The notes under the pieces are model-generated. The model made no database searches. It saw only the letters and a program-made list of their open reading frames with translations, and was not told where the DNA came from. From positions 13,219-77,218 of the forward strand of contig CAYRXH010000001.1 in NCBI GenBank assembly GCA_964428185.1: a stretch of 64,000 nt of DNA, in the 5' to 3' direction. How positions within the stretch are numbered: position 1 is the first letter of the stretch; each line of letters opens with the position of its first letter. Origin of the DNA: an uncultured Bacteroidales bacterium. Its GTDB lineage: Bacteria > Bacteroidota > Bacteroidia > Bacteroidales > DTU049. The translations under genes were made by a program, and so were the position numbers. Shown here piece after piece: positions 8,765-24,539 of the stretch.

Positions 8765-9172
8765 TTATTTTTTATGTTCACAAATTTCCATTAATACTCC
8801 ACCGGTTGAACGGGGATGCAAAAAAGCAATGTCCAAACCTTCGGCTCCGCGACGGGGTGTTTTATCAATAAGCTGTACATCTGAGGCTTCTAGTTCTGAA
8901 AGATCCTTAACGATGTCTTCGCTTGCAAAGGCAATATGATGAATCCCCTCGCCTTTCTTTTCAATGAACTTTCCTATGGGACCTTCAGTATCTGTGGATT
9001 CAAGCAACTCTATCTTAGTTTGACCAACCTGAAAAAAAGCAGTTTTTACCTTCTGGTCTTTCACTTCTTCAATGCCATAGCATTTCAGCCCCAACTTTTC
9101 CTCATAGAAACGGATGCTCTTCTCCAAGTCAGACACCGCAATTCCTATGTGCTCGATATGAGTAATTTTCAT
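8765..9172 (-). CDS. mce: methylmalonyl-CoA epimerase (VOC/glyoxalase fold)
   Basis: 135 aa starting HIEHIGIAV and carrying IHHIAF. First gene of the mmd operon. Confidence 0.8.
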
Positions 9173-9186
9173 ATTGCAGTTTTTTG

Positions 9187-9194
9187 CAAAAATA
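9187..9194 (-). promoter_or_regulatory. candidate Bacteroidota -7 promoter box (TATTTTTG) for the epimerase/mmd operon
   Basis: Matches TAnnTTTG on the minus strand, 15 nt upstream of the ATG at 9172. Confidence 0.35.
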
Positions 9195-9298
9195 ATGGAA
9201 TTTCAATAGTACTTATAAATAATGGTTCACTTTTTTTTCAAAATAGACAAATATCTTTCATTATAGGTTAAGATGTTGTTATGTTGGGATAGATTTTG

Positions 9299-10960
9299 TC
9301 AATACAAAGACCATGTAATTTCTAATTCCCAACCAGACTTGATTATTACTCTGCCTGAAGACTTATAACTCCGCTCAGGTTGCTTCCTTTCAGAAAAATT
9401 ACCGGTGTCCCATTTCTGATTACAATTCCGATCAGAGAAAATCTTCAGAAAATAATCGCCAGGTATGAGCCCTTGATAGGTTCTGATATGTTTGAATTCA
9501 TTTTCCCCATAACAGTGCTTGTAAACGACTTCTTTTCGGGCATTGAAAAATTCAATACAATGGCATTCGTTCAAACTGTCAGTAAATATTATGTTCAGGG
9601 TGCCGTAATAATCTTCAAAAGTACTGGTGATTTTGAATGAAACAGAGTCGTTGCTCAGACCAAAGCAATCACTGATTGCGCCTTTGTTAAAAATGATTTC
9701 ATATTCAGTGTTCTCTTTCTGGTTAAATACTACACCAATGTTATGTGGATCATTCGTTGAAAAAAACAATAGCTTATTCAGGGTATCATTTTTCGTGATG
9801 AGAAGTACTGAATCATTGTTTATAGAATAAAGCGGATTTGATGATCTGAAAAATACTGTATCACCCAAATGGAAATGATTATCATCAAATCCATTTTTCA
9901 ACGACAATTTCGGAGGAAGATAACTGTCCTGCACAACACTTCCCCTTCCGGTCAGTTTCAGTGAAAGATTCAGTGTGTCCAGTACTTGTCCGGAAGCAGA
10001 AATGACAACCCGGGCAAAATCTTTTTTCTGCCCTGCGAACCAGATATTCAGCGTGTCGGAGGTTTCATTGAGCAGCCAGAAAACACTGTCGGCTACATTG
10101 TCATCCAATACTTCTACATGAGGAAGTGTCACGGGCATATTCAGAGCAAGCTGATGTAGTCCCCTTCTTGTCCTTGAAAATTTCAGTATTTTCAGCACTG
10201 TATCCTGTTCAAAAAATAGTCTGACAGGCTGGTCGAGCACAACAGTATTTGATATTGTTGTGTCGTTGATCTGTAATTGTTTAACATGAACGGTTGCAGG
10301 GAAAAAACCAGCCATTTCTTCGTAACTGTTGAGGGTATGACTTTGATCCTTGTCGCTCAGTGCATACAGTGAATAATTTCCGGGGGGAAGCAGGTGAAAC
10401 ATAAAAACTCCCTGCACATCGCTGAATGCAATATAGGAAAACTGTTTTTTTAGCAGTGCTGAATCCGGATTTTCGGGGAAAAGATACACAACTGAGTTTT
10501 CAAGAGGCTCACCTGTGGCAGCATTGATTATACGTCCCTGAAGATTCAGACTGTCAAATGAGTTTCCTGTGGAGAATACAAACTGTAAAGTTTTAAGGAC
10601 ATTTCCCTCATGAAAATCGACAACAGCATTATTTAGAACAAGAGTATAAGACTGTTGATTTTTCAGTTCTTCAGGAAGCTTGATGATCAGGCGTTTTCCT
10701 TTGATCTTATATTCAATTTTGCCGTCATGAAGAGGGTTCAGAAAAATATTTGTTTCAGGTGATTTTAAAGTAAAAAATTCATCAAATGTAATTTCAATTG
10801 TTTCTGAAGAGAAATTTGTCAGACCACCCTCTGGTTCAAAAACCAGCACAAGGGGTGGTTCAGTATCTGCAGGTCCTCCTGTGGGGGCGACAACTTTTGC
10901 ACAAGTAGCAACCATCACTGCAACGAAAACTAAGATACCCAATTTACGAAGAAATACCAT
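9299..10960 (-). CDS. Ig-like domain lipoprotein, function unknown
   Basis: Signal peptide ending VATC (lipobox-like), followed by APTGGPADTEPPLVL, which is typical of Bacteroidota Ig-like lipoproteins. Confidence 0.5.
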   Translation of the reverse strand: MVFLRKLGILVFVAVMVATCAKVVAPTGGPADTEPPLVLVFEPEGGLTNFSSETIEITFDEFFTLKSPETNIFLNPLHDGKIEYKIKGKRLIIKLPEELKNQQSYTLVLNNAVVDFHEGNVLKTLQFVFSTGNSFDSLNLQGRIINAATGEPLENSVVYLFPENPDSALLKKQFSYIAFSDVQGVFMFHLLPPGNYSLYALSDKDQSHTLNSYEEMAGFFPATVHVKQLQINDTTISNTVVLDQPVRLFFEQDTVLKILKFSRTRRGLHQLALNMPVTLPHVEVLDDNVADSVFWLLNETSDTLNIWFAGQKKDFARVVISASGQVLDTLNLSLKLTGRGSVVQDSYLPPKLSLKNGFDDNHFHLGDTVFFRSSNPLYSINNDSVLLITKNDTLNKLLFFSTNDPHNIGVVFNQKENTEYEIIFNKGAISDCFGLSNDSVSFKITSTFEDYYGTLNIIFTDSLNECHCIEFFNARKEVVYKHCYGENEFKHIRTYQGLIPGDYFLKIFSDRNCNQKWDTGNFSERKQPERSYKSSGRVIIKSGWELEITWSLY

Positions 10961-10971
10961 CAGAAGTACAA

Positions 10972-12330
10972 TTATTGATGAGAACTCAGTGATTTGATTT
11001 TTTTCAAAAGGCTTGCTGTTTCTTTTTCCATGCCGGGCTTACCGAGAAGGGCAAACATATTTCTTTTATATGCTTCAACACCGGGCTGATCAAACGGGTT
11101 GATATCCATTAAGTATCCGCCGGCAGCACATGCAAATTCAAAAAAATACATCAGGGATCCCAGATTTTCAATGTTCAGTTCATTAATAGTGATTCCGATA
11201 ACAGGCACATCACCTTCATGATGTGCAATCATGGTAGCCTGCTCTGCTATGGTGTTGATTTCTGTCACATCTCTGCCTTTCAGGTATTCAAGGCCGTCCT
11301 CGTTTCCTGCTGAAGCAGGAAACTGCATTGTCCCCGGTTTCTTTTTTATGATTATGAAAGTTTCAAAAAGGGATCTCATTCCTTCCTGAATATATTGCCC
11401 CATTGAATGCAGATCAGTAGAAAATATACATGAGGCAGGAAAAATACCCGAGCGATCTTTTCCGTCACTTTCACCGAATAATTGTTTCCACCACTCAGCT
11501 AAATATTGAAGTTCAGGTTGAAAACTGGATAAAACTTCGATGGTTTTATGCTGACGGAACAGAGAAATCCTCATGGCTGCATACAATAATGAAGGATTGT
11601 TATCAGCAGTGCTTTTCGACAAACAGATTTGTTTCATTTTGTCAGCAGCACCAAGCATTGATTTTGTATCATAACCTGCAAGAGACAGAGGAACAATGCT
11701 AACTGGTGAAAATACAGAATAACGCCCTCCGACAGAATCATCAATGACAAAAGAAGTCCAGCCTGATTTATCGGTCATGTTTCTTAGTGCCCCTTTTGAC
11801 CGATCTGTAATCGTGATGATCCTTTTCTGTACTTCATCCTGTCCATAGGCCTGTTCAAGATGAGTTTTCAGGATCCTGAAGGCAAGTGCCGGTTCAAGTG
11901 TTGTCCCTGATTTTGAAACAACAATGACTCCGTAATTCCTTGTGTTCAGGTAGTTTATCAGACTGTCGAGATAGAAGGCACTCATGTGATGCCCTGCAAA
12001 AACAACTTCTGTCGTGGTATGGTCAGGGAATGGTGATCGAAGGGCTTCGCAAACTGCTTTTGTGCCGAGATAGGATCCTCCGATTCCAATCACAACAACT
12101 GTGTTAATCTGTAGTTTTACCCAGTCATTTTTTACAGATTCAACAGATGACCAGAATTGATCTTCCTTCAGCATTGTTTCAGTTAGCTTTAACCAGCCCA
12201 GAAATTCGTTGCCTTTTCCTGTCATAGTGGTGAGTTGATGATAAGCAGATTGGATTTTTTCTGCAAAATCATGGCTGATCCATTGCTTGTTCTGATGACA
12301 CAACTGAATATTGATTTCGGGAATCATTTC
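10972..12330 (-). CDS. pgi: glucose-6-phosphate isomerase
   Basis: PGI motifs IGIGGSYLG, VSKSGTTLEP, GGRYSV and GESDGK. The start was moved to the internal ATG (MIPEINIQ) because the first 27 codons of the tracked ORF look non-native. Confidence 0.85.
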   Translation of the reverse strand, partial: EMIPEINIQLCHQNKQWISHDFAEKIQSAYHQLTTMTGKGNEFLGWLKLTETMLKEDQFWSSVESVKNDWVKLQINTVVVIGIGGSYLGTKAVCEALRSPFPDHTTTEVVFAGHHMSAFYLDSLINYLNTRNYGVIVVSKSGTTLEPALAFRILKTHLEQAYGQDEVQKRIITITDRSKGALRNMTDKSGWTSFVIDDSVGGRYSVFSPVSIVPLSLAGYDTKSMLGAADKMKQICLSKSTADNNPSLLYAAMRISLFRQHKTIEVLSSFQPELQYLAEWWKQLFGESDGKDRSGIFPASCIFSTDLHSMGQYIQEGMRSLFETFIIIKKKPGTMQFPASAGNEDGLEYLKGRDVTEINTIAEQATMIAHHEGDVPVIGITINELNIENLGSLMYFFEFACAAGGYLMDINPFDQPGVEAYKRNMFALLGKPGMEKETASLLKKIKSLSSHQ

Positions 12331-12508
12331 AAATTTTTTCTGCGAATTTACAATAAAAAAAATTGTTATTGTGATACTCTCGTGCAGTACAGTTATAAAA
12401 AACAAAGACACCCTTTGTGAGGATGTCTCTGTTTGCTAACCAAATATATTAACCTAAAAAGGAATATCAATTTATTTTACAAAAATACAGCTTGCATTCG
12501 CTGTTTTA

Positions 12509-12545
12509 TGTTAATGCCTGTTAATTTTTGTTAATAATTGTTAAG
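12509..12545 (+). promoter_or_regulatory. four direct TGTTAA(T/G) repeats at exact 10-bp phasing
   Basis: TGTTAATGCC TGTTAATTTT TGTTAATAAT TGTTAAG, with repeat starts at 12509, 12519, 12529 and 12539. Located upstream of the HK/RR operon. Confidence 0.4.
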
Positions 12546-12604
12546 TAGCTCTCTTCATTGATGTAATAGAAAGAGAAATATTGAATTGTGAGTAAAAATT
12601 TCAA

Positions 12605-12612
12605 TACATTTG
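12605..12612 (+). promoter_or_regulatory. candidate -7 promoter box (TACATTTG) for the two-component operon
   Basis: TAnnTTTG match about 20 nt upstream of the ATG at 12633. Confidence 0.4.
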
Positions 12613-12632
12613 TAAAATAATACTGTTTGTCA

Positions 12633-14342
12633 ATGCAACTTGGAATCAGAAAAAATTTCTCTCTTATTCTTGTGATAATCAGTGCATTGTCAATGGTTGG
12701 TCTGATTTTGATTCAGTATTACTGGATCACAAATGCAATAGGATCAAGGGAAAGTAATTTTGAAAGAAGCGTTCAGGAGGCCATGTCGAAGGTGATTTAT
12801 CAGACTGAGAAAATAGAAATTGCTGAGAGAATTAAGGGCAGATATAAGTCAATCGGAAAGGGAACATCTCTGTTCAATACAGTGGATTCGATCAATCAAC
12901 TGCTTTTCAAGGAGTTTGATAAAATGTTTTCTGATTCTGTGATCAATGACAGTGTGATTAATATTACCAAGGAAAGGATCAGCATTGAGATTTCCCAGGA
13001 TAAATATGGGCATCCTGTGACTAAAATTGATACTAGTTATATTGTTTATCAGAAATCAGAAAAGGATAAGAATATCATTCCTGATATGGAAGATGGGACA
13101 TCAGCCGGAGCAGGTCTGCTACCTGATGCGAAGCAGAGCGAACAACTTGTAGATATGGACGTTGACAGTTTAATGCTGGAGTTCGACAAATTTCTGAAAC
13201 GAACTTTTATTGTAAGTGATATCTTTGAGGACATGTTCAATTTTACTCATTTTATTCCCATCGAGGAAAGAGTTGATGTGAACAGACTTGATTCAATGAT
13301 TCAGCAAGAGTTGGAAGCAAAGGGAATCAATATTGAGTTTGAAATTGGAATATACAGCTCACTGAAAAAGGAGATGGTTTATGAAAAAACCGGAAAATAC
13401 TCAGATGAACTCACAAAAGAAGGTCAGTCTTTTCAGTTGTTTCCAAGCGATTTTTTTTCTGTTCCCAATTATCTGTTTATTTATTTTCCCAATCGCACCG
13501 AATTCCTTATGAAGCAGATGAGGCAAACCCTTGTGCTGTCCTTTGTGCTTGTTGCCATGATTATTTTGATTTTTTCATACGTCCTGATTTCTTTCATAAG
13601 ACAGAAGCGACTCTCGGAGGAGAGAAATGATTTCATAAACAATATGACTCATGAATTTAAAACTCCGATTTCAACAATTTCACTGGCATGCGAAGCCATG
13701 AAAGATCCTTTGATCACCAATGATGAAGCCATGCGGGAAACATACATTGATATCATTCACAAGGAGAACATGAGACTATCAACTATGGCTGAAAAGATTC
13801 TTCAAACTGCAATGATCGATCACGGGCAGATAAAGATCTCCAAGGACGTGGTTGACTCAAAGAAAATAATTTCAGCTGTTATTGAAAATATTACACTTCA
13901 GCTTGAGCATCGTGAAGGTCGAATCCATACTTTTTTTCTGGCAATAAATCATACCATTGCTGCTGACAGAGTACATTTTACAAATATTATTTACAATCTT
14001 CTTGACAATGCGATAAAGTTTACAAAAAAGCAACCTGAGATTATTATTAAAACCTTCAATGAGCGTGATAATCTGATTATAGAAGTGATTGATAATGGAA
14101 TTGGGATTCCCAAGAACGATCAGAAAAAAGTGTTTGAAAAGCTTTACAGGGTTTCAAGTGGAAATGTTCATGATGTGAAGGGCTTTGGCTTAGGCTTAAG
14201 CTATGTGAAAGCGATTGTTGAATTGCACGAGGGAACAATAAGTCTTGAAAGCGAACCCGGGAAAGGATCTACATTCAAATTGAATTTTAAATGTATTGAA
14301 AACAATGGAGAATCAAAAGAAACAAAAGGTATTACTGGCTGA
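12633..14342 (+). CDS. sensor histidine kinase
   Basis: Two TM segments, H-box FINNMTHEFKTPIS, and ATPase boxes DNAIKF, DNGIGI and GFGLGLSYV. The tracked ORF starts at TTG 12627, but the ATG at 12633 is preferred. Confidence 0.8.
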   Translation: MQLGIRKNFSLILVIISALSMVGLILIQYYWITNAIGSRESNFERSVQEAMSKVIYQTEKIEIAERIKGRYKSIGKGTSLFNTVDSINQLLFKEFDKMFSDSVINDSVINITKERISIEISQDKYGHPVTKIDTSYIVYQKSEKDKNIIPDMEDGTSAGAGLLPDAKQSEQLVDMDVDSLMLEFDKFLKRTFIVSDIFEDMFNFTHFIPIEERVDVNRLDSMIQQELEAKGINIEFEIGIYSSLKKEMVYEKTGKYSDELTKEGQSFQLFPSDFFSVPNYLFIYFPNRTEFLMKQMRQTLVLSFVLVAMIILIFSYVLISFIRQKRLSEERNDFINNMTHEFKTPISTISLACEAMKDPLITNDEAMRETYIDIIHKENMRLSTMAEKILQTAMIDHGQIKISKDVVDSKKIISAVIENITLQLEHREGRIHTFFLAINHTIAADRVHFTNIIYNLLDNAIKFTKKQPEIIIKTFNERDNLIIEVIDNGIGIPKNDQKKVFEKLYRVSSGNVHDVKGFGLGLSYVKAIVELHEGTISLESEPGKGSTFKLNFKCIENNGESKETKGITG

Positions 14343-15018
14343 GGATGATCCTCATCTTGGTCAGATTCTGAAAATATACCTTGAAGCAAGAGGGTATTCA
14401 GTCATGCTTGCTCATGATGGAGATCAGGCACTTCAGATGATTTTGTCCAATGAAGACATCAGTATTATATTGCTTGATGTGATGATGCCCAAAAAAGACG
14501 GGTTTCAACTTGCACGTGAGATCAGAGACCGGAATATTTCAACACCGATTATCTTTACAACTGCCAAAACTATGCAGATTGATATACTCGAAGGCTTCAA
14601 ATTGGGTGCTGATGATTATCTGACAAAGCCATTCACCATGGAAGAACTTATGGCCAGAATTAATGCAGTTTTGCTCAGGGCATACAAGGGAGAAAGTAAA
14701 ACAGTAAGAGATAGTTCAAACTGTCGGATAGGCTTGTATCATTTTGATCATACAAGACAGGTGCTGAAGTTTGAATACGAAGAAATGAAACTTACTGCCC
14801 GTGAGGCCGATCTGCTAAAACTACTATGTAATTATTCAAATCAGATTCTCGACAGACGGGTCGCTCTTGAACTCATTTGGGGTGAAGATAACTACTTTCA
14901 TTCGAGAAGCATGGATGTGTATATCTCCAAGCTGAGAAAATATCTCAGGGAAGATCCACGAATTGAACTGATGAACATCCATGGGGTAGGCTTTAAATTT
15001 ATTGTGCCGGAAGAATGA
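14296..15018 (+). CDS. OmpR-family response regulator
   Basis: Receiver motifs LLAEDD, LLDVMMP and TAK, plus a C-terminal winged-helix (LTAREADLL, VYISKLRKYL). An alternative start lies at 14305. Overlaps the end of the kinase gene. Confidence 0.85.
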   Translation: MKTMENQKKQKVLLAEDDPHLGQILKIYLEARGYSVMLAHDGDQALQMILSNEDISIILLDVMMPKKDGFQLAREIRDRNISTPIIFTTAKTMQIDILEGFKLGADDYLTKPFTMEELMARINAVLLRAYKGESKTVRDSSNCRIGLYHFDHTRQVLKFEYEEMKLTAREADLLKLLCNYSNQILDRRVALELIWGEDNYFHSRSMDVYISKLRKYLREDPRIELMNIHGVGFKFIVPEE

Positions 15019-15075
15019 TATCAAATTTTTAATGACTTCAGTTTTTTTTTTGTCCCCTGACAATAAAAAAAGTAT

Positions 15076-15083
15076 TACTTTTG
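15076..15083 (+). promoter_or_regulatory. candidate -7 promoter box (TACTTTTG) driving the riboswitch leader
   Basis: TAnnTTTG match immediately upstream of the THI-box. Confidence 0.45.
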
Positions 15084-15089
15084 CAGAGT

Positions 15090-15175
15090 TACTCAACAAG
15101 GGGTGCCTAATCACAACAGGCTGAGATCATACCCATAGAACCTGATCCGGGTAATGCCGGCGTAGGGATAGGGTT
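15090..15175 (+). promoter_or_regulatory. TPP (THI-box) riboswitch
   Basis: Contains the conserved elements GGGGTGC, CTGAGA, ACCC and GAACCTGATCCGGGTAATGCCGGCGTAGGGA in the canonical order. Confidence 0.85.
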
Positions 15176-15242
15176 AAATAATAAAAAAGGGCGGTGTTGC
15201 CCCATTGCACTGCTTAATTGTTTAACCAAAACCAATAAAAAA

Positions 15243-17624
15243 ATGAAAAAATTATGTTTGATTGTCATCTATTTGACAACTTGTTCTGTGCTTACTGATG
15301 GACAGAACTTCATTTCCACAATTAGCGGACATGTTACCGAGTTTGGCTCAGATCTACCTCTGGCCGGTGCCAATGTGTGGATTGACGGAACTTTTTTAGC
15401 AACTACAACCAATGCTGAGGGGTATTTTGAGCTTAAAAATGTACAAATGCAAAGCGTCACTCTTGTGGTGAGTTTTGTAGGTTACTCAAGATTCAGTACT
15501 TCTGTCACTGCTGACAACAATGATTTGCTTGAAGTGAAACTAAAACCATCAGTTTATACAACCGAAGAAATTGTCATAACTGCCAGCAGGGCAGATGAAA
15601 TGACCCCAAGTACCCAACATACTGTCAGAGGGACTGAACTGATGGAACTGGGTTCAGGGCAGGATCTGCCTATTCTTTTAGAATTGACACCATCGGTGGT
15701 ATCCACCTCAGACGCTGGAGCAGGGATTGGATACACTGGTTTGAGAATACGAGGAACTGATATCAGCAGAATCAATGTTACAATCAATGGAGTGCCCCTC
15801 AATGATCCCGAATCGAATGGAGTTTTTTGGGTGAACATGCCTGATTTGGTGTCTTCTGTTGATAATATTCAAATACAACGCGGTGTTGGCACTTCATCAA
15901 ACGGAGCTGCTGCCTTTGGTGCAAGTGTAAACATTCAAACCATCAGATTTTCGGAGAAACCCTATGCTGAAACCAACTCCTTTGCAGGCTCGTTTAACAG
16001 TTTTTCAAATAATGTCAAGTTTGGAACCGGAATTTTGCAAGGAATGTGGGCTTTTGACGGAAGGTTGTCAAGAATCACTTCAGATGGATATATCGACAGG
16101 GCCTTCTCTGATCTGAAATCATATTTCTTCAATGCAGGATGTTATCGCGAAAAAACAATTTTTAGGTTTACCATGCTTGGCGGTTATGAAAAAACCTATC
16201 AGGCTTGGGGAGGTGTCCCGAAAGACAGCCTTGAAACCAACAGAACTTATAATCCCTATACCTATGAAAACGAAACCGACAACTACGGTCAGTATCATTT
16301 TCACTTCAATTTGATGCATCAGTTTAGTAAGAATGTGACTGTGAACTCAACCGCATTCCTTATCAAAGGTGCCGGATACTATGAACAGTATAAGGATGAC
16401 AGGGATTTGTCAGATTATGGACTTGAACCTTTTACAATCGGGACGGATACATTGACAGAGAGCGATCTCATACAACAGAAGCATCTTGATAATATCTTTT
16501 ACGGCCTAAATACATCTGTTCATTACAATTCATTGAAAAAAACAAAATTGTCAGCCGGATTTGCAGTGAACAGTTACACAAATGATCATTTCGGAAAAAT
16601 AATCTGGATGCAGTATGCCGGAAAAGTCCCTATAAATTATCAGTGGTATTTGAATACCGGAAATAAACGGGATTATTCGGCCTTTTTGAAAGGAACTTAT
16701 CTGATCAGCGACCGCTTGAGCTTGTATGGAGATTTGTTGTTTCGACATATTGACTATGAGATGAAGGGACTTCATGATGATCTTCGCGATCTGACACAAA
16801 CACATAATTTTGATTTCTTCAATCCAAAAGCAGGGATATTTTACCGGATTAACAGCAACAATGAATGTTATGCATCTTTTGCTACGGCAGGGCGGGAGCC
16901 GAGCCGCAATGACTTCAGGGATGCTGATCCCGGAGTTGAGATACGCGAGGAACGGCTTTGTGATTATGAGGCAGGATATCGTTTTAAAAGAAAAAACATT
17001 TTGCTGAATTTCAATCTTTTTTACATGGATTATAAAGACCAGTTGATTCTCACTGGAAAGATCAATAATGTGGGTGCTCCTGTGATGACCAATGTGCCAC
17101 GGAGCTACAGGGCAGGTATTGAAAGTGCGGCACTGTTGAAAGTGGGTAAAAATATTGAATTTGAAGGGAATATAGCCTTGAGCAGGAATAAAATCATTGA
17201 TTTTACAGAATATATTGACGACTGGGACACATGGAGCCAGGTATCCAGATATCTTGGTGAAACCGACATTTCATTTTCTCCTTCTGTGGTCAGTGGAGCC
17301 GTGATCAGCTATCTTGCACCAAAAAATCTGAAAGTATCTCTCACATCCAAGTATGTAGGAAGACAATACATTGACAATACATCATCAGCCGAGAGGTCTC
17401 TTAATCCGTGGCATTTTAACAATCTGAATATCTGTTATATTATAAACGAATTTCCATTTAATGAAATTGAGTTCAAGTTGTCAGTGATTAATCTTTTTAA
17501 TGTGCAATATGAATCAAATGCCTGGGTGTATAGATATATTTATGGAGGTGAGGAATATGCCATGGAAGGTTATTTTCCACAGGCAGGGCGGCACTTCATG
17601 GCAGGTGTGAGGATTGCGTTTTAG
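15243..17624 (+). CDS. TonB-dependent receptor, riboswitch-controlled (likely thiamine-related uptake)
   Basis: Signal peptide, CarboxypepD_reg-like N-domain, plug motif IQIQRGVGTSSNGAAAFGASVNI, a long beta-barrel and a terminal aromatic residue (RIAF). Confidence 0.85.
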   Translation: MKKLCLIVIYLTTCSVLTDGQNFISTISGHVTEFGSDLPLAGANVWIDGTFLATTTNAEGYFELKNVQMQSVTLVVSFVGYSRFSTSVTADNNDLLEVKLKPSVYTTEEIVITASRADEMTPSTQHTVRGTELMELGSGQDLPILLELTPSVVSTSDAGAGIGYTGLRIRGTDISRINVTINGVPLNDPESNGVFWVNMPDLVSSVDNIQIQRGVGTSSNGAAAFGASVNIQTIRFSEKPYAETNSFAGSFNSFSNNVKFGTGILQGMWAFDGRLSRITSDGYIDRAFSDLKSYFFNAGCYREKTIFRFTMLGGYEKTYQAWGGVPKDSLETNRTYNPYTYENETDNYGQYHFHFNLMHQFSKNVTVNSTAFLIKGAGYYEQYKDDRDLSDYGLEPFTIGTDTLTESDLIQQKHLDNIFYGLNTSVHYNSLKKTKLSAGFAVNSYTNDHFGKIIWMQYAGKVPINYQWYLNTGNKRDYSAFLKGTYLISDRLSLYGDLLFRHIDYEMKGLHDDLRDLTQTHNFDFFNPKAGIFYRINSNNECYASFATAGREPSRNDFRDADPGVEIREERLCDYEAGYRFKRKNILLNFNLFYMDYKDQLILTGKINNVGAPVMTNVPRSYRAGIESAALLKVGKNIEFEGNIALSRNKIIDFTEYIDDWDTWSQVSRYLGETDISFSPSVVSGAVISYLAPKNLKVSLTSKYVGRQYIDNTSSAERSLNPWHFNNLNICYIINEFPFNEIEFKLSVINLFNVQYESNAWVYRYIYGGEEYAMEGYFPQAGRHFMAGVRIAF

Positions 17625-17804
17625 ATTCCGGCCGACTCATCGCTCAGCAGGATGCTTCGGGCATGCAGAATTTTTTTATAAGCAAAACTCCAATAACCCA
17701 TAGGGCTATAATGTTAATAAAAAATGGTAAAAAAACCCATATTTTTGTCCGTCCCGAAGCCATCCCTATGGGATCAGGACATTAACAAACAACATCCAGG
17801 CTTT

Positions 17805-17896
17805 TTGTTGATCCACTACGTGGAAAACCATATCTTTTCATTTTGGTTTTATTGACATTGAAGCATGGAGTTTATCATGCAAAGGGTGAGGCTAGT
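17805..17896 (+). repeat. 92-bp direct repeat, left copy, bracketing the toxin islet
   Basis: Near-identical to 24081-24172. Core: AACCATATCTTTTCATTTTGGTTTTATTGACATTGAAGC(A/T)TGGAGTTTATCATGCAAAGGGTGAGGCTAGT. Confidence 0.85.
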
Positions 17897-17943
17897 TAAG
17901 GCAGATAAAAGAAATACATTCGATATTTAATGTAAATATTTTT

Positions 17944-17951
17944 TAAATTTG
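17944..17951 (+). promoter_or_regulatory. candidate -7 promoter box (TAAATTTG) in front of the first Rhs fragment
   Basis: TAnnTTTG match. It overlaps the TTG start used by the ORF track, which makes the ATG at 17973 the more likely start. Confidence 0.35.
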
Positions 17952-19310
17952 AAAAAAATTCCACGCATTAAGATGAATTCTTCTGTCTATTTCGACAAAA
18001 CCCTTTACAGCAGTCCGCTGATGGTGGTGACGGACAAGGAATACTCGAAACACTACTTTATTGAGGGAGAAAGAGTCTGTACGAAAACCTGTGCTGAGCG
18101 AAGTCGAAGCTTATGTGGCGGCTTTTGGGGGACAGCACCCTTTATGCCCAATGGCACTCCTGTGGACATGCTCTATGGCACCTTGCCCGAATTTACCTAT
18201 AATCTCAGCGTAATGACAGGCCGGCACATCAAATGCACAGGATATGACGAACAATGGGACATCAGCCCGTCGTTTGCGCATCTGCTCAACAAAACCAACA
18301 TGCCCGAAATTAACCAATACTTCTACCACCCCGATCACCTCGGCTCCGCATCCTTTGTGACCGATGCCACGGGTTATGTTGACCAGCACATCCAATACCT
18401 CCCATTTGGAGAGTTATTCATCAGCCAGAGAAACTCCACATTCGACAGCAGATATAAATTCACTGCAAAGGAACTGGATAATGAAACTCAATATACTTAC
18501 TTTGGTGCGAGGTATTTGGATTCGGAAGTGTCGATATGGTTGTCTGTTGACCCGTTAGCAAGCCAGTTTCTTTCACAAAGCCCATACAATTATTGTTTCA
18601 ATAATCCAGTTCGTTTAGTTGATCCTGATGGATTAGCACCAGATGAACCACAGGGAGCAGGTTATTATACGGATAGAATGAATTCAAGATATGTGGGTTT
18701 TGCCGTAAGAAACCCGATTGCTGCAGGTAGAATAGGGTTTGGTGTTACTCCTGGAGCAACAAACATTTCAACTAATTCGACGAGATTTTCTACTAGAGGT
18801 GAGGTGTTATACGGTTCGAAAAGAGGCCAAGAAGACAGAGGTAGTGAAAATGGAGCATTCAGACATGTATTGTGGCAAGCGTCTATTACTTCCGAGTTTG
18901 ATAGAAGTGTAGCTGCACAAGCAGGAAATGCACATGAAGAAAATCCATTTGCAGATTTAACTGTTAGAACTTTTAGTAATTTAGATGATGCTGATCAAAC
19001 GGTTGATTTGTTGAATAATATTATTGGTAGAAATATTGGAGATGCTAATAGTGGAGCAGGTATGGATAAGTTAGCTAATCTAATCCTTGATGAGTTTTAT
19101 ACTAATGGGTTATATACTGCTAGTCAAAATAAAGATGGGAATTGGACCATTTCAAAAACCAAACTATCGTCCGATAAATACAATCAACTGAAGAGCATAT
19201 ATAAAGGACTAAATGTAAATGGACGAACAGCATCTGAGCAAAATGCCGTTGATATTGAAGCCAAACAAAACTTAGAACAATTGCAATTAATATGGGGGAC
19301 AATGAAATAA
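17949..19310 (+). CDS. N-terminally truncated Rhs repeat-associated core protein with a variable C-terminal toxin domain (CT1)
   Basis: Rhs core hallmarks YHPDHLGSASF, QYLPFGE, YFGARYLDSEVSIWLSVDP and NPVRLVDPDGL. These are followed by about 225 aa unrelated to the other two modules, carrying AFRHVLWQA, NAHEENP and DLLNNIIGRNIG. The likely true start is ATG 17973. Confidence 0.8.
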   Translation: MKKIPRIKMNSSVYFDKTLYSSPLMVVTDKEYSKHYFIEGERVCTKTCAERSRSLCGGFWGTAPFMPNGTPVDMLYGTLPEFTYNLSVMTGRHIKCTGYDEQWDISPSFAHLLNKTNMPEINQYFYHPDHLGSASFVTDATGYVDQHIQYLPFGELFISQRNSTFDSRYKFTAKELDNETQYTYFGARYLDSEVSIWLSVDPLASQFLSQSPYNYCFNNPVRLVDPDGLAPDEPQGAGYYTDRMNSRYVGFAVRNPIAAGRIGFGVTPGATNISTNSTRFSTRGEVLYGSKRGQEDRGSENGAFRHVLWQASITSEFDRSVAAQAGNAHEENPFADLTVRTFSNLDDADQTVDLLNNIIGRNIGDANSGAGMDKLANLILDEFYTNGLYTASQNKDGNWTISKTKLSSDKYNQLKSIYKGLNVNGRTASEQNAVDIEAKQNLEQLQLIWGTMK

Positions 19311-19311
19311 T

Positions 19312-19740
19312 ATGAAAACAGCCGGTTTTTTTTTGGTAGCGTGTCTATTCTTTTATAGTTGTTCAGAAAGCAATGACTTCGATGATATTATTTCGAATGA
19401 ATGGGAAAAATGTCAAGAAGGAGGAAAAGACACCATAGATATCTCAAATGTAATGCAGTTTGATTGGGACACAATGTGTTTTTATTCTGGTGCGATTTCA
19501 TTAGAAGAAATCAATCAGGATTTAGGATTTTACTTGAAGGGGTTTACAGATAACGGAGATCGTGTAATCTTTTTACACAAAGGTAAAGTGGTTTACCATA
19601 AAGAATGGTTTAATAAACCTAGTGAACCTGATGAAGGGACTGTTTTTGAAACAGATTTAAAAATATTTAAAATAAGCAAACATGATTCAAAATTTAAAAT
19701 TAGGAAAGAAGGAAAAATGTTTTATTTGAAGAAAATTTAA
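19312..19740 (+). CDS. candidate immunity lipoprotein for CT1
   Basis: Starts 1 nt after the toxin stop. Has a lipoprotein signal (FFLVACLFFYSCS). 142 aa, no recognised family. Confidence 0.55.
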   Translation: MKTAGFFLVACLFFYSCSESNDFDDIISNEWEKCQEGGKDTIDISNVMQFDWDTMCFYSGAISLEEINQDLGFYLKGFTDNGDRVIFLHKGKVVYHKEWFNKPSEPDEGTVFETDLKIFKISKHDSKFKIRKEGKMFYLKKI

Positions 19741-19861
19741 TTAAAAATGACTGTCAATATAATACTCTCCAATTTTTAGACCACTGCTTAAGTGTTAAAA
19801 ACAAATTTACAACATGGGGTAAAAACTCAAGGGAGTACTTCTAATATTTGAATAAAGAATT

Positions 19862-20509
19862 ATGAAAAACAGAATAATTATTACTTGTATAGTAATGCTT
19901 TATTTAGCAAATAGTTTCCTATTCTCCCAAGAGATAGAATCTGCTCCCAATTTGAATCAAAATGCTTTTCTCAGAGAAGAGGCTTTTGATAATAAGTTTT
20001 CTGTTAAAGACACAATAGAGTTGTTTCTTGAAGATACTTCATTTTATATTATGATTGATTATGATCAATTAATTAATGAATTCAGAAACCAAAAAGATGT
20101 GTATAAATATTTTTCATCCTCGCTAGGTTTACAATTTCAATTTAGAGACAGTTTGCAGGATGGATTTTATTGTTTATACAATTTAACAAGAGAAAAAGCA
20201 AAAAAAATTAAAAACAAAGAGGAGTTTGTTTTAGCATCAGGAGAATTTAAAAACAAAATGAGAAAGGGTGCATTTACTTTCTATTACATTCCAGATAATC
20301 CGAAATGGACCAAAGCAGAAAAGACAATTTATTTTAAAGATGATGTAGTACACGGTGTAGTTATTGAAAAAGAAAATGATAGAATAGCATATTTGGGGGA
20401 ATATAAAATGGGTGTAATGCATGGGTTCTTCTATTATTACAATAATGGTGTTCCTGTAATTGTTTTATATGAAGATGGTGTGGTAATTAAGTCTTCTGAG
20501 TTTTGGTAA
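19862..20509 (+). CDS. MORN-variant/YwqK-like repeat protein (immunity-type) with a signal peptide
   Basis: Signal peptide followed by G-x-Y/F repeats (HGVVIEKENDRIAYLGEYKMGVMHGFFYYYNNGVPVIVLYEDGVV), as in the YwqK-family antitoxin/immunity proteins of polymorphic toxin loci. Confidence 0.5.
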   Translation: MKNRIIITCIVMLYLANSFLFSQEIESAPNLNQNAFLREEAFDNKFSVKDTIELFLEDTSFYIMIDYDQLINEFRNQKDVYKYFSSSLGLQFQFRDSLQDGFYCLYNLTREKAKKIKNKEEFVLASGEFKNKMRKGAFTFYYIPDNPKWTKAEKTIYFKDDVVHGVVIEKENDRIAYLGEYKMGVMHGFFYYYNNGVPVIVLYEDGVVIKSSEFW

Positions 20510-20521
20510 GATGATATAAAA

Positions 20522-21454
20522 ATGGAATTAATAATCAAACAACATAAAACTACAAAATTTAGTTTTTCTATTCTCAAGGAACTTGACAACGAAACTCAAT
20601 ACACCTATTTTGTTGAGCGATATTATGACAGCAATATCAGTATTTGGTTGAGTGCCAGCGTTGAGCGAAGTCGAAACGTTGACCCATTAGCACAAGAGCG
20701 CCCCTGGCTCTCTCCCTACAACTACTGCCAATGGAATCCGGTGGGGAGAGTGGATCCGACGGGGGCGTTGGATGGATGGGTTGAAGATGAGGCAAATCCC
20801 GATAAGGGAGTTTACTGGGATCCAAATATTAATTCACAAGCACAAGCCGATGCTGCAGGAGTTAAATATCACGGGCAGGAAGGCTGGGGATATAATGAGA
20901 ATACAGGCAACAGGATACATTACAAGACTGATGGCTTTTCAACCGAATCACTTACCACCTTGTCAACTCACAATGTGTATGGATTAAAAGGGTCAGGCAC
21001 TGTGACAAAAGCCATGGAGAAAAGCATGAATCAGGGTTATGATCCTGAATGGATTTCTGACTTTAATTATATGATGGAAACAATCATGTGGGCGATTACT
21101 ATCGAAATGGATATTATAATGCTTGGGGCATGGGCAACAGCAGTTGAGAGCCAATCAACAGTTGGGATGTTTTCTAAAACAACCATGAGGAAAACAACTG
21201 CTTTAGAAGGAGCAGTTAAAAATAATTATGGGCGTTTTGTTAAGGATATGCCTGTCAATGCTAAAGGTAATGCAAATTGGAGATTATTGGATGATGGATA
21301 TTATTTATTTGAAGCCACATCACCTGCTACTAAAATACCAGGTTCAAAAGCAGTATATCAAAAATGGGTAACTTCTCAAGGAGAAACTTTCAAAATGATT
21401 AAAACCACTTATGCCACTGATGGTAGTATTGTTCATGTTAAGCCAAAATTTTAA
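20522..21454 (+). CDS. orphan Rhs-core tip with a variable C-terminal toxin domain (CT2)
   Basis: Homology to the other modules starts at KELDNETQYTYF and runs to NPVGRVDPTGA, followed by a unique tail of about 228 aa. Contains a 7-codon insertion (SVERSRN) inside the conserved SIWLS-VDPL segment. Confidence 0.7.
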   Translation: MELIIKQHKTTKFSFSILKELDNETQYTYFVERYYDSNISIWLSASVERSRNVDPLAQERPWLSPYNYCQWNPVGRVDPTGALDGWVEDEANPDKGVYWDPNINSQAQADAAGVKYHGQEGWGYNENTGNRIHYKTDGFSTESLTTLSTHNVYGLKGSGTVTKAMEKSMNQGYDPEWISDFNYMMETIMWAITIEMDIIMLGAWATAVESQSTVGMFSKTTMRKTTALEGAVKNNYGRFVKDMPVNAKGNANWRLLDDGYYLFEATSPATKIPGSKAVYQKWVTSQGETFKMIKTTYATDGSIVHVKPKF

Positions 21455-21795
21455 TGAAAAAAAGAAAGCAAATACTTGTTGATCTGTTCAACTTAAAAGG
21501 CAACCTGAATGAGTTGCAATATGAATTATCCAAATATCCTTGGGATTCAGAAACTCCTTTAATTTTAGTAAAAAAAATTAATTTTGTGAATAGTCTATTA
21601 AAATTTCTAAATAACGATTTGCTCTTTTTAGAAGTTGAATTTTGGGCAAATATCATAGAATGTAGAGACGATATTGAATTTGAGTCTGAAGATATAAAAG
21701 AGTATATTTTTGAATTGGCAAATCCATATTTATATGGTGAAATAACTAAAGAGAAATTAATTGAAATTATTCAAAATATCCAATTAAAATTATAA
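21454..21795 (+). CDS. candidate cytoplasmic immunity protein for CT2
   Basis: Its ATG overlaps the toxin stop (TAATG). 113 aa, no signal peptide, no recognised family. Confidence 0.5.
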   Translation: MKKRKQILVDLFNLKGNLNELQYELSKYPWDSETPLILVKKINFVNSLLKFLNNDLLFLEVEFWANIIECRDDIEFESEDIKEYIFELANPYLYGEITKEKLIEIIQNIQLKL

Positions 21796-22803
21796 ATGTC
21801 TCCCATAAAACATATCTCTAATCTCGGCTCCGCCTCTTTCATCACCGATGCCACCGGCTATGCTGAACAGCATATACAATACCTGCCCTTTGGCGAATTG
21901 TTTATCAGCCAAAGAAACAGCACTTTTGATTCGAGATATAAATTCACCGCAAAGGAACTAGATAATGAAACGCAATATACTTACTTTGGTGCGAGGTATT
22001 TGGATTCGGAAGTGTCGATATGGTTGTCAATAGATCCCCTCAGCGACAAATACCCCAGCCTATCGCCCTATGCGTATTGTGCTAATAATCCAGTGATATT
22101 GGTGGATCCGGATGGGATGAGAATTAACAGGGCTAATAGTGTTGGTCTTAGAGATTATCGTAGGTCGTTAAAATCTACTAAAGAAGGTCGCGAAATTTGG
22201 AAAGGGATGAAAAGATCAAGCACTTTGATTTCTGTTATTTATTCAAATGACGTAATAGTTGATCAAACCCATAATGGACACTTTGTATTATCAGGTGCAT
22301 ATTTACATGATGCTAATACCACAACAAGAAACAGTGGAAGGAATTCAAGAGGGCAGACTAAAACTGAAACTTATTTTAGGGATGGTACTGTTTATGTTTC
22401 AATGGGAACATATCAGGCTCAACAGGAAATTATGCAGATTTATGGAGTGCATAATTGGGATGATTTAACTGATGGTCAAAAACAAGCTGGGCTACAGCAA
22501 GTATTATCTTCAGGGAATTACACTTTGCGAAATATTAACGATTGGTCAATCGTCAACCCAAATAATGTAAACATTGCAACAGGATCAAATCCCGATGCAG
22601 ATTATATTATTACTCCACCAATTGATGGGGAAACCAGACAACAGTATTCTGAGCGAGTTTCTGCACATGAGGGTCGTCATAGTGTTAATGCAAATTGGTT
22701 AACCAGTATTTACAATAGGAGTCGTTCAGAATATAGAGACAGACAAGAAAGAGCTGCATATAGAACTGAAAGTAAAGTTATTAATGAACAATTATCAAGA
22801 TGA
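21796..22803 (+). CDS. orphan Rhs-core fragment with a C-terminal toxin domain carrying an HExxH motif (CT3)
   Basis: LGSASFITDATGY, QYLPFGE, YFGARYLDSEVSIWLSIDP and NPVILVDPDGM, followed by a unique tail of about 228 aa with HEGRH at nt 22666-22680. Starts immediately after the preceding stop codon. Confidence 0.75.
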   Translation: MSPIKHISNLGSASFITDATGYAEQHIQYLPFGELFISQRNSTFDSRYKFTAKELDNETQYTYFGARYLDSEVSIWLSIDPLSDKYPSLSPYAYCANNPVILVDPDGMRINRANSVGLRDYRRSLKSTKEGREIWKGMKRSSTLISVIYSNDVIVDQTHNGHFVLSGAYLHDANTTTRNSGRNSRGQTKTETYFRDGTVYVSMGTYQAQQEIMQIYGVHNWDDLTDGQKQAGLQQVLSSGNYTLRNINDWSIVNPNNVNIATGSNPDADYIITPPIDGETRQQYSERVSAHEGRHSVNANWLTSIYNRSRSEYRDRQERAAYRTESKVINEQLSR

Positions 22804-23894
22804 AGAGGACAACACTACTGATTTCAGTGTGCTTGGTTTATTTTGTGGGTTTTTCTCAAAACACAAATTATAAGCTTAATATTCATAAAGACGATAGTAA
22901 TAATGGTTGTTTACGATATGACTTATCATTGAATGATGTGCAAATATCAAGCAGCACACAATCGGCTGAATTTAAGAGGTTTATATCTAGCAGCGAAAGC
23001 ATTAGCGTACATTTTCAAAATCTTAATAATGAAGAAATACATTTTGTAATAAATGAGTTTTCTGATGAAATGGTATTGAAAGTGAAAGAGCTTTGCATTG
23101 CTTTTTCGTCTTTAAATACTAGCATGGATGTTGCACCTATCTCAAAATTTAAGAATCTTGAATTATTGAGTTTTCAAAATCCTTCAAACATTGATGTGAA
23201 ACAAAAACTATTGTTGCATAATATAGAGGAGCTGTGTAAACTGAAAAATCTTGTGTATTTAAGTTTACCCAATACCAATGTAAATCAGTCATTCAAAATA
23301 TGTTGTTTTGAGAGCTTGAAGTTTCTTGATGTTTCTTTTTCAAATATTGATGTAGAATGGCAACTAATGAAGAATTGCTCTAGTCTGAAACACTTGATTT
23401 TTGGCAATATCAATAACAAAATTGTTTCAGAATTTATTTCTGAAATTGCTTGCAACAAAACTTTAAATGAGATTACTCTAATTATTCAAAACAGTAAACA
23501 AATGCAACTTCTTTCAAGTTTTTCAGGAATTGAAAAGATAAATCTTGTTTTTGGTTTTTCCATATCAGAGAAGAAGTTAGATGAAACTTTTGTAAGTCTT
23601 TCAAAAATTGATAATCTTAGATCATTGCATATTAAGGCAGATTCACAAAAAAGAGCAATAAGAAAAATTCCAGAATCAATTCAAATGTTGCAGGATATTG
23701 AAGAATTATCAATTGATTTTCCCTTATCGGAAATTGATAATCTTTCTATTAAAAAACTCAAGTTGTTAAGGCTTTACATAAGTAATTCTCATTATTTGCT
23801 AGATGGACAATCAGAGTCCTTTAAGAAAAGAAACCCTGAAGTTGAAATTATTTTTGAGAATGATGTTTTTAAATTATCAACAACAATAAACTAG
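22800..23894 (+). CDS. leucine-rich-repeat protein with a signal peptide (candidate immunity for CT3)
   Basis: ATGA overlap with the CT3 gene. Signal peptide LLISVCLVYFVGFSQ. Repeated LxxLxLxxN-like units (LKNLVYLSLPNTNV, LKFLDVSFSNI, LKHLIFGNI). Confidence 0.55.
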   Translation: MKRTTLLISVCLVYFVGFSQNTNYKLNIHKDDSNNGCLRYDLSLNDVQISSSTQSAEFKRFISSSESISVHFQNLNNEEIHFVINEFSDEMVLKVKELCIAFSSLNTSMDVAPISKFKNLELLSFQNPSNIDVKQKLLLHNIEELCKLKNLVYLSLPNTNVNQSFKICCFESLKFLDVSFSNIDVEWQLMKNCSSLKHLIFGNINNKIVSEFISEIACNKTLNEITLIIQNSKQMQLLSSFSGIEKINLVFGFSISEKKLDETFVSLSKIDNLRSLHIKADSQKRAIRKIPESIQMLQDIEELSIDFPLSEIDNLSIKKLKLLRLYISNSHYLLDGQSESFKKRNPEVEIIFENDVFKLSTTIN

Positions 23895-24080
23895 AAAATA
23901 ATGTAAGCTTCCCCAATTTTCGGTCCATTCAAAATTTGAGTTTCAAAGATGATCATTTTTTGATAGAATTGCTTCAGATGTTTTATAATTCAAGGATTTA
24001 GGAGACCTTTGATAAGTATGTAAATTTTAAAAAGTTCCGGCAACGGGGCTTTTTTATAAAATACCCTGCAACTTCGTTTC

Positions 24081-24172
24081 TTGTTTATCCACACTGTGGG
24101 TAACCATATCTTTTCATTTTGGTTTTATTGACATTGAAGCTTGGAGTTTATCATGCAAAGGGTGAGGCTAGT
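24081..24172 (+). repeat. 92-bp direct repeat, right copy, bracketing the toxin islet
   Basis: Aligns with 17805-17896 with a handful of mismatches. A partial third AAAGGGTGAGG motif lies at about 24378-24392. Confidence 0.85.
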
Positions 24173-24539
24173 GATGGGGTAACTTCTCCAAAATGCGACC
24201 ATTTAATAATGAAATTATTATTTCATTGTTCACAACATGTTTTTTCTGTGTCAACAACTGTCTCAACCATTTTTTTTTACTTTGCAGTTTGTAAAAAAAT
24301 CCCTTGCCACCATGTGGCAACATCAGTGTCCATGTCCGGAAGGCATGGTACAAAAAATCAGCCGACCTTTGAGCACTGAAAGGGTGAGGTCTTATTTTTC
24401 AAATCCTGATGTTTTTTGATAAGAAAACGCAGTGATGCAATTCTTTTAAAAAATACTCAGAGGATTTTTTACTTGTGCATATTGATGCAGTCAAAATTTC
24501 ACGAAAAAGCAGTAACTTTACGTCATAATACTTTTGTTT

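Follow-up and report, generated by a model that had tools for sequence, protein, structure and literature searches.

Orphan rhs-CT/rhsI modules that arose by C-terminal displacement have been described in Enterobacteria (Jackson 2009; Koskiniemi 2014, both as cited in PMC5727410) and in Snodgrassella alvi (PMC5727410); the displacement model and the transcription of some orphans are covered in PMC5727410. In Bacteroidales, immunity genes are found in the acquired interbacterial defence (AID) islands AID-1 and AID-2 and in the recombinase-associated islands rAID-1 (Ross et al., 10.1101/471110). A third relevant system is BteO, which was characterised in 2025 as an effector of the genetic architecture 3 (GA3) type VI secretion system (T6SS) of Bacteroides fragilis; this protein is toxic only in the periplasm, acts non-enzymatically and binds the C-terminal domain of OmpA (PMC12541434). 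The BteO immunity protein, BtiO, mimics this domain, OmpA-C (PMC12541434; PDB 9UU1). The locus described here lies in a 64,000-nt stretch of DNA from an uncultured Bacteroidales bacterium (GenBank assembly GCA_964428185.1, contig CAYRXH010000001.1, positions 13,219 to 77,218 of the forward strand; hereafter the window), in which three truncated Rhs modules, termed A, B and C, are interspersed with four small genes. Coordinates are those of the window unless a contig is named, and all features of the window are on the + strand. The locus is a genuine orphan Rhs toxin/immunity array and belongs to a known kind of system. We infer that it is probably a decayed Rhs locus that has been kept as an immunity operon and a toxin reservoir, with the balance between these two roles being a matter of judgement.

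All seven open reading frames (ORFs) of the array are intact, co-directional and located where an earlier reading of the letters alone (the sequence-only reading) had placed them. Three of these ORFs carry the last part of an Rhs core, as had been claimed, and each exceeds the curated cut-off of 32.5 bits for the model TIGR03696 (Rhs_assc_core): ORF A (17949-19310) scores 60 bits over residues 150-229, ORF C (21796-22803) scores 64.8 bits over residues 29-108, and ORF B (20522-21454) scores 37.2 bits over residues 19-81, with only model positions 22-75 covered. The hallmark motifs that had been quoted for all three ORFs hold in part, as the SIWLS/DPxG region is present in each, but module B lacks YHPDHLGS and QYLPFGE and module C lacks YHPDH. 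The cores end with DPDGL (A), the variant DPTGA (B), and DPDGM (C); a DPxGL-type motif is an autoproteolysis site, and cleavage at these motifs is predicted. A profile including the core matches solely TcC/Rhs cores in the PDB (TcdB2-TccC3, YenC2, and Rhs; E 1e-8 to 1e-13). Past DPxG(L/A/M), the three ORFs continue into tails of 224–227 residues that are mutually unrelated, in agreement with the length of about 225 residues given previously. The near-gapless joins to the small ORFs are also exactly as described: ORF A ends at 19310 and its partner begins at 19312 (TAA-T-ATG), module B and B-imm have one base in common (TAATG), the start codon of module C immediately follows the B-imm stop codon (TAA-ATG), and module C and C-imm overlap by 4 nt (ATGA). 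The region is indeed more A/T-rich than its flanks, with 34.7% G+C in the island and 38.6% in the remainder of the window; values are 24–30% for the small genes that follow the toxin ORFs and 45% for the core DNA. Searches of Pfam and NCBIfam identified no PAAR, Hcp or SpvB/TcdB domain, signal peptide, or other trafficking domain in A, B or C, and no ORF of the window has a Pfam match to RHS_repeat, leaving none of the toxin ORFs with a YD/RHS shell in the same gene. The curated model matches, the toxin–partner pairs that are kept in other contigs, and the lack of a full-length rhs gene in the window uphold the identification of a polymorphic-toxin/immunity array of 5′-truncated Rhs modules.

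The array is situated between a gene for a TonB-dependent receptor and a gene for an S8 peptidase carrying a type IX secretion system sorting tail, both assigned by Pfam. In a metagenomic contig (L064; contigs used for comparison are designated by L numbers), genes for a response regulator, a TonB receptor, an S8 peptidase and universal-stress-like proteins occur in the same order with 72–88% amino acid identity, and the receptor and peptidase genes are separated by only ~130–150 nt. Alignment with L064 indicates that ancestral intergenic DNA resumes at ~24420, and the extra DNA extends over ~17625-24420, or ~6.8 kb. Because the two flanking genes are nearly adjacent in this syntenic contig, the extra DNA is an inserted island. 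At the left edge of the island, 3 nt past the stop codon of the TonB receptor gene, there is a decayed relic of an Rhs YD-repeat body (17627-17755; 130 nt). Frame 3 of the relic reads SGRLIAQQDASGMQ…IKNGKKTHIFVRP and matches residues 68–101 of an 814-aa Rhs fragment encoded in L059 (blastx, E 3.8e-7), and positions 17629-17674 (46 nt) are 89–92% identical to L059 by blastn. The relic indicates that a longer rhs gene either was once present at this site or reached it in truncated form. The array is accordingly what survives of the 3′ side of such a gene after truncation and an internal deletion. A Bacteroidales metagenome-assembled genome (L002) offers a likely picture of the lost head, as residues 15–229 of ORF A have 61% identity to the C-terminal region of a protein of 3255 residues with SpvB, FG-GAP and TcdB_midN domains and RHS repeats. 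In a scan of GTDB representatives the best match had 61% amino acid identity, and none came from the same species.

No full-length rhs gene is present within the 64-kb window, in which no ORF is longer than 1084 aa and the large ORFs are unrelated. Similarly, no rhs, T6SS or integrase gene is found among the 10 largest other ORFs of the window, the ORFs examined within and beside the island include no recombinase gene, and no RNA family or tRNA was detected in the island (Rfam at a permissive threshold; ARAGORN). Directly upstream of the array, the place of a parent rhs gene is taken by the TonB receptor gene, with the shell relic as the only Rhs-derived DNA. The earlier description of the array as headless consequently stands for A, B and C, with their lack of shell and trafficking domains, and has to be amended in that the head left a trace, the 130-nt relic. 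The headless state also proves to be less unusual than that reading had implied, because orphan modules with no parent directly upstream recur in L059, in L148, and in the recombinase-bearing contigs L150–L156. Upstream of the receptor gene, a thiamine pyrophosphate (TPP) riboswitch at 15089-15185 (70 bits) directly precedes the coding sequence, in accordance with the riboswitch-controlled receptor that had been proposed. This arrangement implies thiamine-regulated uptake.

Homologous cassettes are located in other genetic contexts. The DNA from the VDP codons of module A to 5 nt past the stop codon of A-imm1 (18545-19745) is 92% identical to L150–L152 and 87% identical to L154–L156. In these contigs the A-type cassette adjoins genes for HU, a helix-turn-helix (HTH) regulator, a primase of ~900 aa, and two tandem tyrosine recombinases (Phage_integrase), and L154 contains two such units in tandem (2910-15913). 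These mobile-element copies of module A also begin with their own ATG. Furthermore, a 1.3-kb Logan contig is identical to 18515-19798 of the window. Positions 21956-23902, including most of module C and its partner, are 87% identical to L059–L062 and in L059 form part of a longer orphan array that also carries Ntox44 and Toxin-JAB1 tips. For each of the three tails, the cognate partner is found directly 3′ of the toxin elsewhere (L150–L156 for A; L144, L147 and L148 for B; L059–L063 for C), and an immunity function is predicted for these partners. The comparisons show that the cassettes circulate separately, the A cassette with primase and recombinase genes, the C cassette in another orphan array, and the B-type domain alone, on Hcp, or on Rhs proteins. 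As a separate observation, the L150–L156 set looks like a family of integrative elements with toxin/immunity cargo. In L059, a 5′-truncated AAA_14/DUF4143 ATPase gene interrupts the array and a gene with Schlafen AlbA_2, HATPase_c_4 and HTH domains is also present (positions 4488-5408 and 12794-14185), so that unrelated and possibly defence-related genes accumulate in such arrays.

Module A has a probable start codon at ATG 17973 and encodes the last ~120 residues of an Rhs shell, an Rhs-associated core (18396-18635), and a BteO-like DUF6973 tail (18636-19307). Tail A matches Pfam family DUF6973 (PF22322) with an E-value of 3.4e-11 and 43 bits against a cut-off of 27, and it aligns with the MBP–BteO fusion protein in PDB entry 9UU0 over 195 residues (tail residues 19–213; E 4e-46). 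Using an offset of 296 between the chain and protein numbering of 9UU0, which was checked with seven residues named in PMC12541434, the residues S118, T126, R143, H144, Q148, H167, E168 and D191 of BteO are kept in tail A. All five of the residues required for OmpA binding and toxicity (R143/H144, H167/E168, and D191) are thereby conserved, and V122 of BteO is replaced by Thr. Tail A is a BteO-family domain, for which OmpA binding and periplasmic toxicity are predicted. The presumed immunity protein for tail A, A-imm1 (19312-19740; 142 aa), carries a signal sequence resembling that of a lipoprotein, in keeping with a toxin that acts in the periplasm, and its homologues (85–96% identity) always occur directly after a truncated DUF6973 Rhs tip. 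A second small ORF, A-imm2 (19862-20509; 215 aa), has a signal-peptide-like N-terminus and may be either a remnant or a further immunity gene, without a toxin gene of its own beside it. The sequence-only reading had given no tail or partner a confident function, which has to be revised for tail A.

Module B (20522-21454) consists of a degraded partial core, a variable linker, and a toxin-like C-terminal domain of ~80 residues (21209-21451). The degradation of the core is evident from the sequences YFVERY and DPTGA and from an 8-aa insertion. Nineteen homologues of tail B were found, and the part they have in common is limited to the last ~85 residues. The predicted model of the domain comprises one helix and a 5-stranded antiparallel sheet (predicted local distance difference test, pLDDT, 84); the domain belongs to no Pfam family, and its model has no significant fold match in the PDB. 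The domain occurs behind Rhs cores, behind LysM, on a TssD/Hcp protein, and alone. The presumed immunity protein, B-imm (21454-21795; 113 aa), is 45–58% identical to a protein of 111–115 aa that is encoded directly 3′ of tail-B-type toxins in three independent contexts (L144, L147, and L148). Since B-imm lacks a signal peptide and is presumably cytoplasmic, a cytoplasmic target for tail B appears likely. Two of the contexts deserve separate mention: in L144 (3674-5273) the tail-B-type domain and its 115-aa partner form a stand-alone pair adjoining a ParE/RelB module, and in L147 (6001-7110) the domain is fused to TssD (Hcp) and is accompanied by the partner.

A 40-aa segment in the linker of tail B (20942-21061; ORF B residues ~141–180) is similar to the repeat through which a phage lysozyme (PDB 5i8l) binds the cell wall. 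The match of tail B to 5i8l as a whole (E 6.9e-7) was rejected, as it reflects this one segment aligning with three repeats, each at an E-value of 2–9. One homologue of tail B has LysM at the position of the 5i8l-like segment, a hint that the linker ahead of the toxin domain may bind peptidoglycan.

Module C (21796-22803) contains a full Rhs-associated core (21880-22119) followed by a tail of 228 residues. Close relatives of tail C are few, with two recovered among 5.8 billion proteins in a word-indexed search, and an exhaustive HMMER search of 1.84 billion proteins yielded a family of 23 clusters. Most proteins of this family have 200–420 residues and start inside the Rhs core, and only two exceed 900 residues; either orphan forms dominate the family or the contigs are fragmentary. 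An HExxH motif (22666-22680) with downstream Glu residues is invariant in the tail, and across an alignment of 21 sequences H184, E185, E211 and E218 never vary and H188 hardly varies. The AlphaFold model of tail C has a pLDDT of 92 and a predicted template-modelling score (pTM) of 0.89. In this model the HExxH motif is placed in the helix 174–194 with the downstream Glu residues as third-ligand candidates, a gluzincin-like HExxH…E pattern. A Foldseek search of the PDB with the model found no fold match (best E 0.47, template-modelling score below 0.2), the tail has no sequence match in the PDB, and no member of the family has a Pfam match for the toxin domain. We infer that tail C is a candidate zincin-like peptidase of an HExxH…E family.

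The presumed immunity protein for tail C, C-imm (22800-23894; 364 aa), has a signal-peptide-like N-terminus and leucine-rich repeats (LRRs; LRR_14 at 4.7e-8, below the cut-off). In five other contigs (L059–L063), the gene for a homologue with 65–75% identity begins within the end of the tail-C gene, again with an ATGA overlap. The ratio of nonsynonymous to synonymous substitution rates (dN/dS) between lineages is 0.19–0.23 for tail C and 0.30–0.41 for C-imm, and because these values are well below 1, both are maintained as coding sequences by purifying selection. A stretch of 33 nt just past C-imm (23901-23933; ATGTAAGCTTCCCCAATTTTCGGTCCATTCAAA) has a counterpart 3′ of the array in L002 (12387-12419), from which it differs by 4 mismatches.

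These observations can be accommodated by the following scheme for the decayed locus. The source would have been a Bacteroidota locus for a polymorphic toxin of the giant SpvB/TcdB/RHS type, from which the DNA encoding the shell body was lost, and the three C-terminal toxin/immunity cassettes would have been stacked by successive C-terminal displacement together with horizontal cassette acquisition. The array would be transcribed as one operon from a TAnnTTTG box 5′ of ATG 17973, with translational coupling via the 0–4-nt junctions. Its present benefit would lie mainly in immunity: the exported proteins A-imm1, A-imm2 and C-imm would act against envelope-acting toxins, such as a BteO-like OmpA-C binder and a zincin-like peptidase, and B-imm, in the cytoplasm, would counter a toxin that acts there. 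Independent delivery of the toxin ORFs is not expected, because they lack a shell and trafficking domains. Modules A and C are 85% identical over 215 nt (18339-18553 and 21823-22037, respectively), including an exact run of 56 nt that stops precisely at the SIWLS/VDP junction, and a tract of 49 nt is common to A, B and C. The 56-nt tract ending at this junction is the signature that would be expected of recombination within the conserved core, and because A and C have it in common, the toxin ORFs are proposed to be a recombination-competent reservoir.

The same tract, with its exact run ending at the cassette boundary, would also be expected of a silent store of cassettes that serves a complete, active rhs gene at another genomic site, copied by homologous recombination to switch the toxin, comparable to the orphan Rhs modules of Salmonella and to pilS cassettes. 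Full-length relatives do exist in related genomes (L002, L005), and the stronger purifying selection on tail C than on C-imm points in this direction. However, the 64-kb window contains no full-length rhs gene, the core of module B is degraded and interrupted, and a silent store is compatible with a role in immunity rather than exclusive of it. We regard this alternative as possible, although with a chance below even. Several observations weigh against the scheme of a decayed locus retained mainly for immunity. Neither A-imm1 nor A-imm2 has a sequence match to BtiO (9UU1) at E ≤ 10, which counts against the scheme in the case of A-imm1; A-imm2 has no match in Pfam, NCBIfam or the PDB, no relative in any locus compared, and no toxin partner. 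The selection on tail C, stronger than on its partner, is more readily explained by a toxin in active use than by a silent one, and the 100-nt repeats that flank the array have a role that falls outside this model.

Transcription of the decayed locus from its own 5′ end is suggested by a box of the Bacteroidota −7 type (TAAATTTG, consensus TAnnTTTG; 17944-17951), which is located ~22 nt 5′ of ATG 17973 and was identified by its match to the consensus only. The first orphan of L059 is homologous to the window from ~30 nt 5′ of the same ATG, a region that spans the box, and carries TATCTTTG where the box of the window aligns. L059 also contains an uninterrupted, coding form of this region, and that form has no box. 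The toxin tails located behind this conserved 5′ unit (box, ATG, and N-terminal 120 residues) differ between the window and L059. The sequence-only reading had assigned a TAnnTTTG box to the first fragment, and the retention of both box and ATG in a second lineage favours a real transcription unit, which suggests that a real promoter drives the array.

A conserved 5′ unit kept in two lineages with different tails could also indicate that the truncated ORFs are autonomous short-form toxins with their own promoter, delivered by another route such as a T6SS or a different Rhs cage. The mobile-element copies that start with their own ATG agree with such a possibility, as does the finding that BteO and tail-B-type domains are T6SS cargo elsewhere. 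Encapsulation by an Rhs core, as seen in Tc/Rhs cocoons, requires the shell, however, and the ORFs have neither a signal peptide nor PAAR, Hcp, or another trafficking domain, and no T6SS genes were seen in the window. Autonomous short forms are for these reasons considered very unlikely.

The array is flanked by two copies of a 100-nt direct repeat, DR-L (17802-17901) and DR-R (24078-24177). The repeat contains a CCACnnnGTGG hairpin/palindrome, a second hairpin, and AAAGGGTGAGG. The copies are 90% identical overall and match at 74 of 75 positions in the centre, and just two copies exist in the window. Their positions coincide with the limits that the sequence-only reading had set for the array (17805-24172), although the repeat was not mentioned there. 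The predicted fold of the repeat is no better than that of shuffled sequence (z −1.5), and an exact search for its core in metagenome contigs found no match. A derivation of the repeat from rhs coding sequence was considered and dismissed, since the blastx match (E 0.054) was judged to be due to chance. A related element, termed X (24300-24395), contains a TTGCCACnnnGTGGCAA palindrome, a CCATGTCCG..GGCATGG hairpin, and AAAGGGTGAGG, and is the final stretch of inserted DNA ahead of the promoter region that the S8 peptidase gene had ancestrally. The features common to the direct repeat and X are the CCACnnnGTGG palindrome with a variable centre, the second hairpin, and AAAGGGTGAGG. A copy of X is found in L059 (301-395) between the start of an IS200/RAYT-like gene (MPQSLAYNYSHIIFSTKNRENF, minus strand) and the first orphan, with the element family spanning 84-395, and an incomplete copy of the repeat is present in L065 (1425-1454), in intergenic DNA that is otherwise unrelated.

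An array enclosed by 90%-identical repeats with a near-perfect 75-nt centre invites interpretation as a mobile island or integron-like array that was integrated site-specifically, with the repeats as the attachment sites attL and attR and the recombinase encoded elsewhere. The absence of the block from the syntenic contig L064 and the location of the A cassette beside two tyrosine recombinase genes in other contigs would be in keeping with this. However, the inserted DNA continues beyond the repeats, by ~180 nt on the left and by ~240 nt on the right, no recombinase gene is present in or next to the island, no tRNA was found, the repeat is absent from the recombinase-bearing contigs, and its relatives in L059, beside the IS200/RAYT-like gene, and in L065 point to a dispersed family resembling repetitive extragenic palindromic (REP) elements. 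Because the inserted DNA reaches past both copies and no recombinase is nearby, a dispersed REP-like family is favoured over attachment sites, as judged from the 64 kb in view, and site-specific integration is held to be unlikely. An rAID-1 island and an integron were both rejected as readings of the locus, there being no recombinase among the ORFs examined and no intergenic repeats.

The Rhs DNA of the array is also marked by short GC-rich insertions that maintain the reading frame. Micro-insertion i1 (18087-18110; 24 nt, ACCTGTGCTGAGCGAAGTCGAAGC, encoding TCAERSRS) is located in the shell-coding part of module A, and micro-insertion i2 (20654-20677; 24 nt, GCCAGCGTTGAGCGAAGTCGAAAC, encoding ASVERSRN) splits the SIWLS/VDP sequence of module B. 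Insertion i1 is absent from L002, L003 and L053 and is identical at 24 of 24 positions in two modules of L059, the flanks of which are only 65–72% identical. Insertion i2 sits exactly where a stretch of 92% identity to L002 begins. Comparison with homologues revealed six kinds of insertion, all GC-rich, 18–30 nt long, and located in Rhs shell or core DNA, with i3–i6 found in L059–L062. L059 carries them at 598-621, 850-873, 1006-1023, 2534-2557, 2690-2707, 2738-2761, 2807-2836, 6836-6859, 10085-10102, 12595-12624 and 14277-14294. Insertion i3 is approximately the reverse complement of i1, and i2 and i6 both split SIWLS/VDP, which is the cassette junction. In the 1.8 Mb of DNA compared, the insertion sequences are confined to Rhs-core DNA of this lineage; matches in viral contigs, which fall in unrelated high-GC DNA, were attributed to chance. 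All six insertion lengths are multiples of three, which argues that the reading frames are under selection.

This last observation bears on the possibility that the array has no function left and is in the course of being deleted. Loss of the head, degradation of the module B core (YFVERY, DPTGA, and the 8-aa insertion) and the AT-rich, foreign composition are what would be expected of debris, but all seven ORFs are intact with their coupling junctions preserved, the dN/dS values are far below 1, each micro-insertion adds a whole number of codons, and partner pairs are kept across contexts. Decay without function is accordingly thought to be quite improbable. It could also be imagined that the headless state is a designed short form, in which the box, the ATG, ~120 shell residues and the core make up a portable acceptor for toxin cassettes, and in which the micro-insertions are the sites or scars of a dedicated non-homologous exchange, perhaps linked to the REP-like elements and the IS200/RAYT-like gene. 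This idea is speculative and unlikely to be correct.

Under the preferred interpretation of a decayed locus retained for immunity and as a reservoir, the array illustrates how environmental Bacteroidales may keep and trade cassettes after loss of the delivery genes, which bears on the origin of immunity islands. Three elements are new: a BteO-type tail that sits behind an Rhs core and has a partner other than BtiO, an uncharacterised small toxin domain (B), and the rare HExxH family, the predicted fold of which has no match. Tail C, with its HExxH…E pattern, a confidently predicted fold that lacks a solved relative, and an LRR partner, is a candidate for a new family of envelope-acting toxins. 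The BteO domain extends beyond Bacteroides fragilis as a circulating polymorphic-toxin cassette that is carried on Rhs cores and found beside recombinase genes. Furthermore, A-imm1 is not recognisably BtiO, suggesting a second way to neutralise a BteO-type toxin. The array resembles the BteO–BtiO pair in that tail A aligns over 195 residues, including the groove residues, and in that the partner has an export signal. The two differ in that BteO stands alone, has a transmembrane helix at its N-terminus and is delivered by a T6SS, whereas here the domain is located behind an Rhs core, and the partner lacks sequence similarity to BtiO.

The cores of the array are related to those of TcB–TcC/Rhs cocoons (TcdB2-TccC3, YenC2, RhsA, and teneurin-like proteins), as indicated by the core matches given above and by the L002 relative with its SpvB, TcdB_midN and RHS repeats. 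With just the final ~200 residues encoded in the window, no cocoon can form. Orphan cdiA-CT/cdiI modules of contact-dependent inhibition loci, reportedly described by Poole in 2011, are comparable in several respects, namely tandem promoter-less pairs of toxin tip and immunity gene, a short junction motif (VENN in those loci; SIWLS/VDP…DPxGL here), and use as a reservoir, but they belong to another protein family and another delivery system. The Bacteroidales islands AID-1, AID-2 and rAID-1 resemble the array as low-GC, co-directional arrays of immunity genes that have no delivery system, were acquired horizontally, and sometimes contain toxin remnants. The rAID-1 criterion of at least two co-directional downstream genes at ≤41% G+C describes the present array well, which has seven co-directional ORFs and 34.6% G+C. 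In contrast to rAID-1, which has a XerD-like tyrosine recombinase gene at the 5′ end and repetitive intergenic motifs, the present array has neither and is flanked by the TonB receptor and S8 peptidase genes, and it has kept full-length toxin tails.

With the orphan rhs-CT/rhsI modules the array has in common 5′-truncated genes, a kept core, an unrelated tail, an adjacent immunity gene, a tandem arrangement, and recombination-prone core DNA. In those systems the array lies 3′ of a complete PAAR/RhsA gene next to a T6SS, whereas here the parent is gone and a 130-nt relic marks its place. Additionally, the modules of the present array are of the SpvB/TcdB/RHS giant type of Bacteroidota, and a conserved promoter-like box is located at the first fragment.

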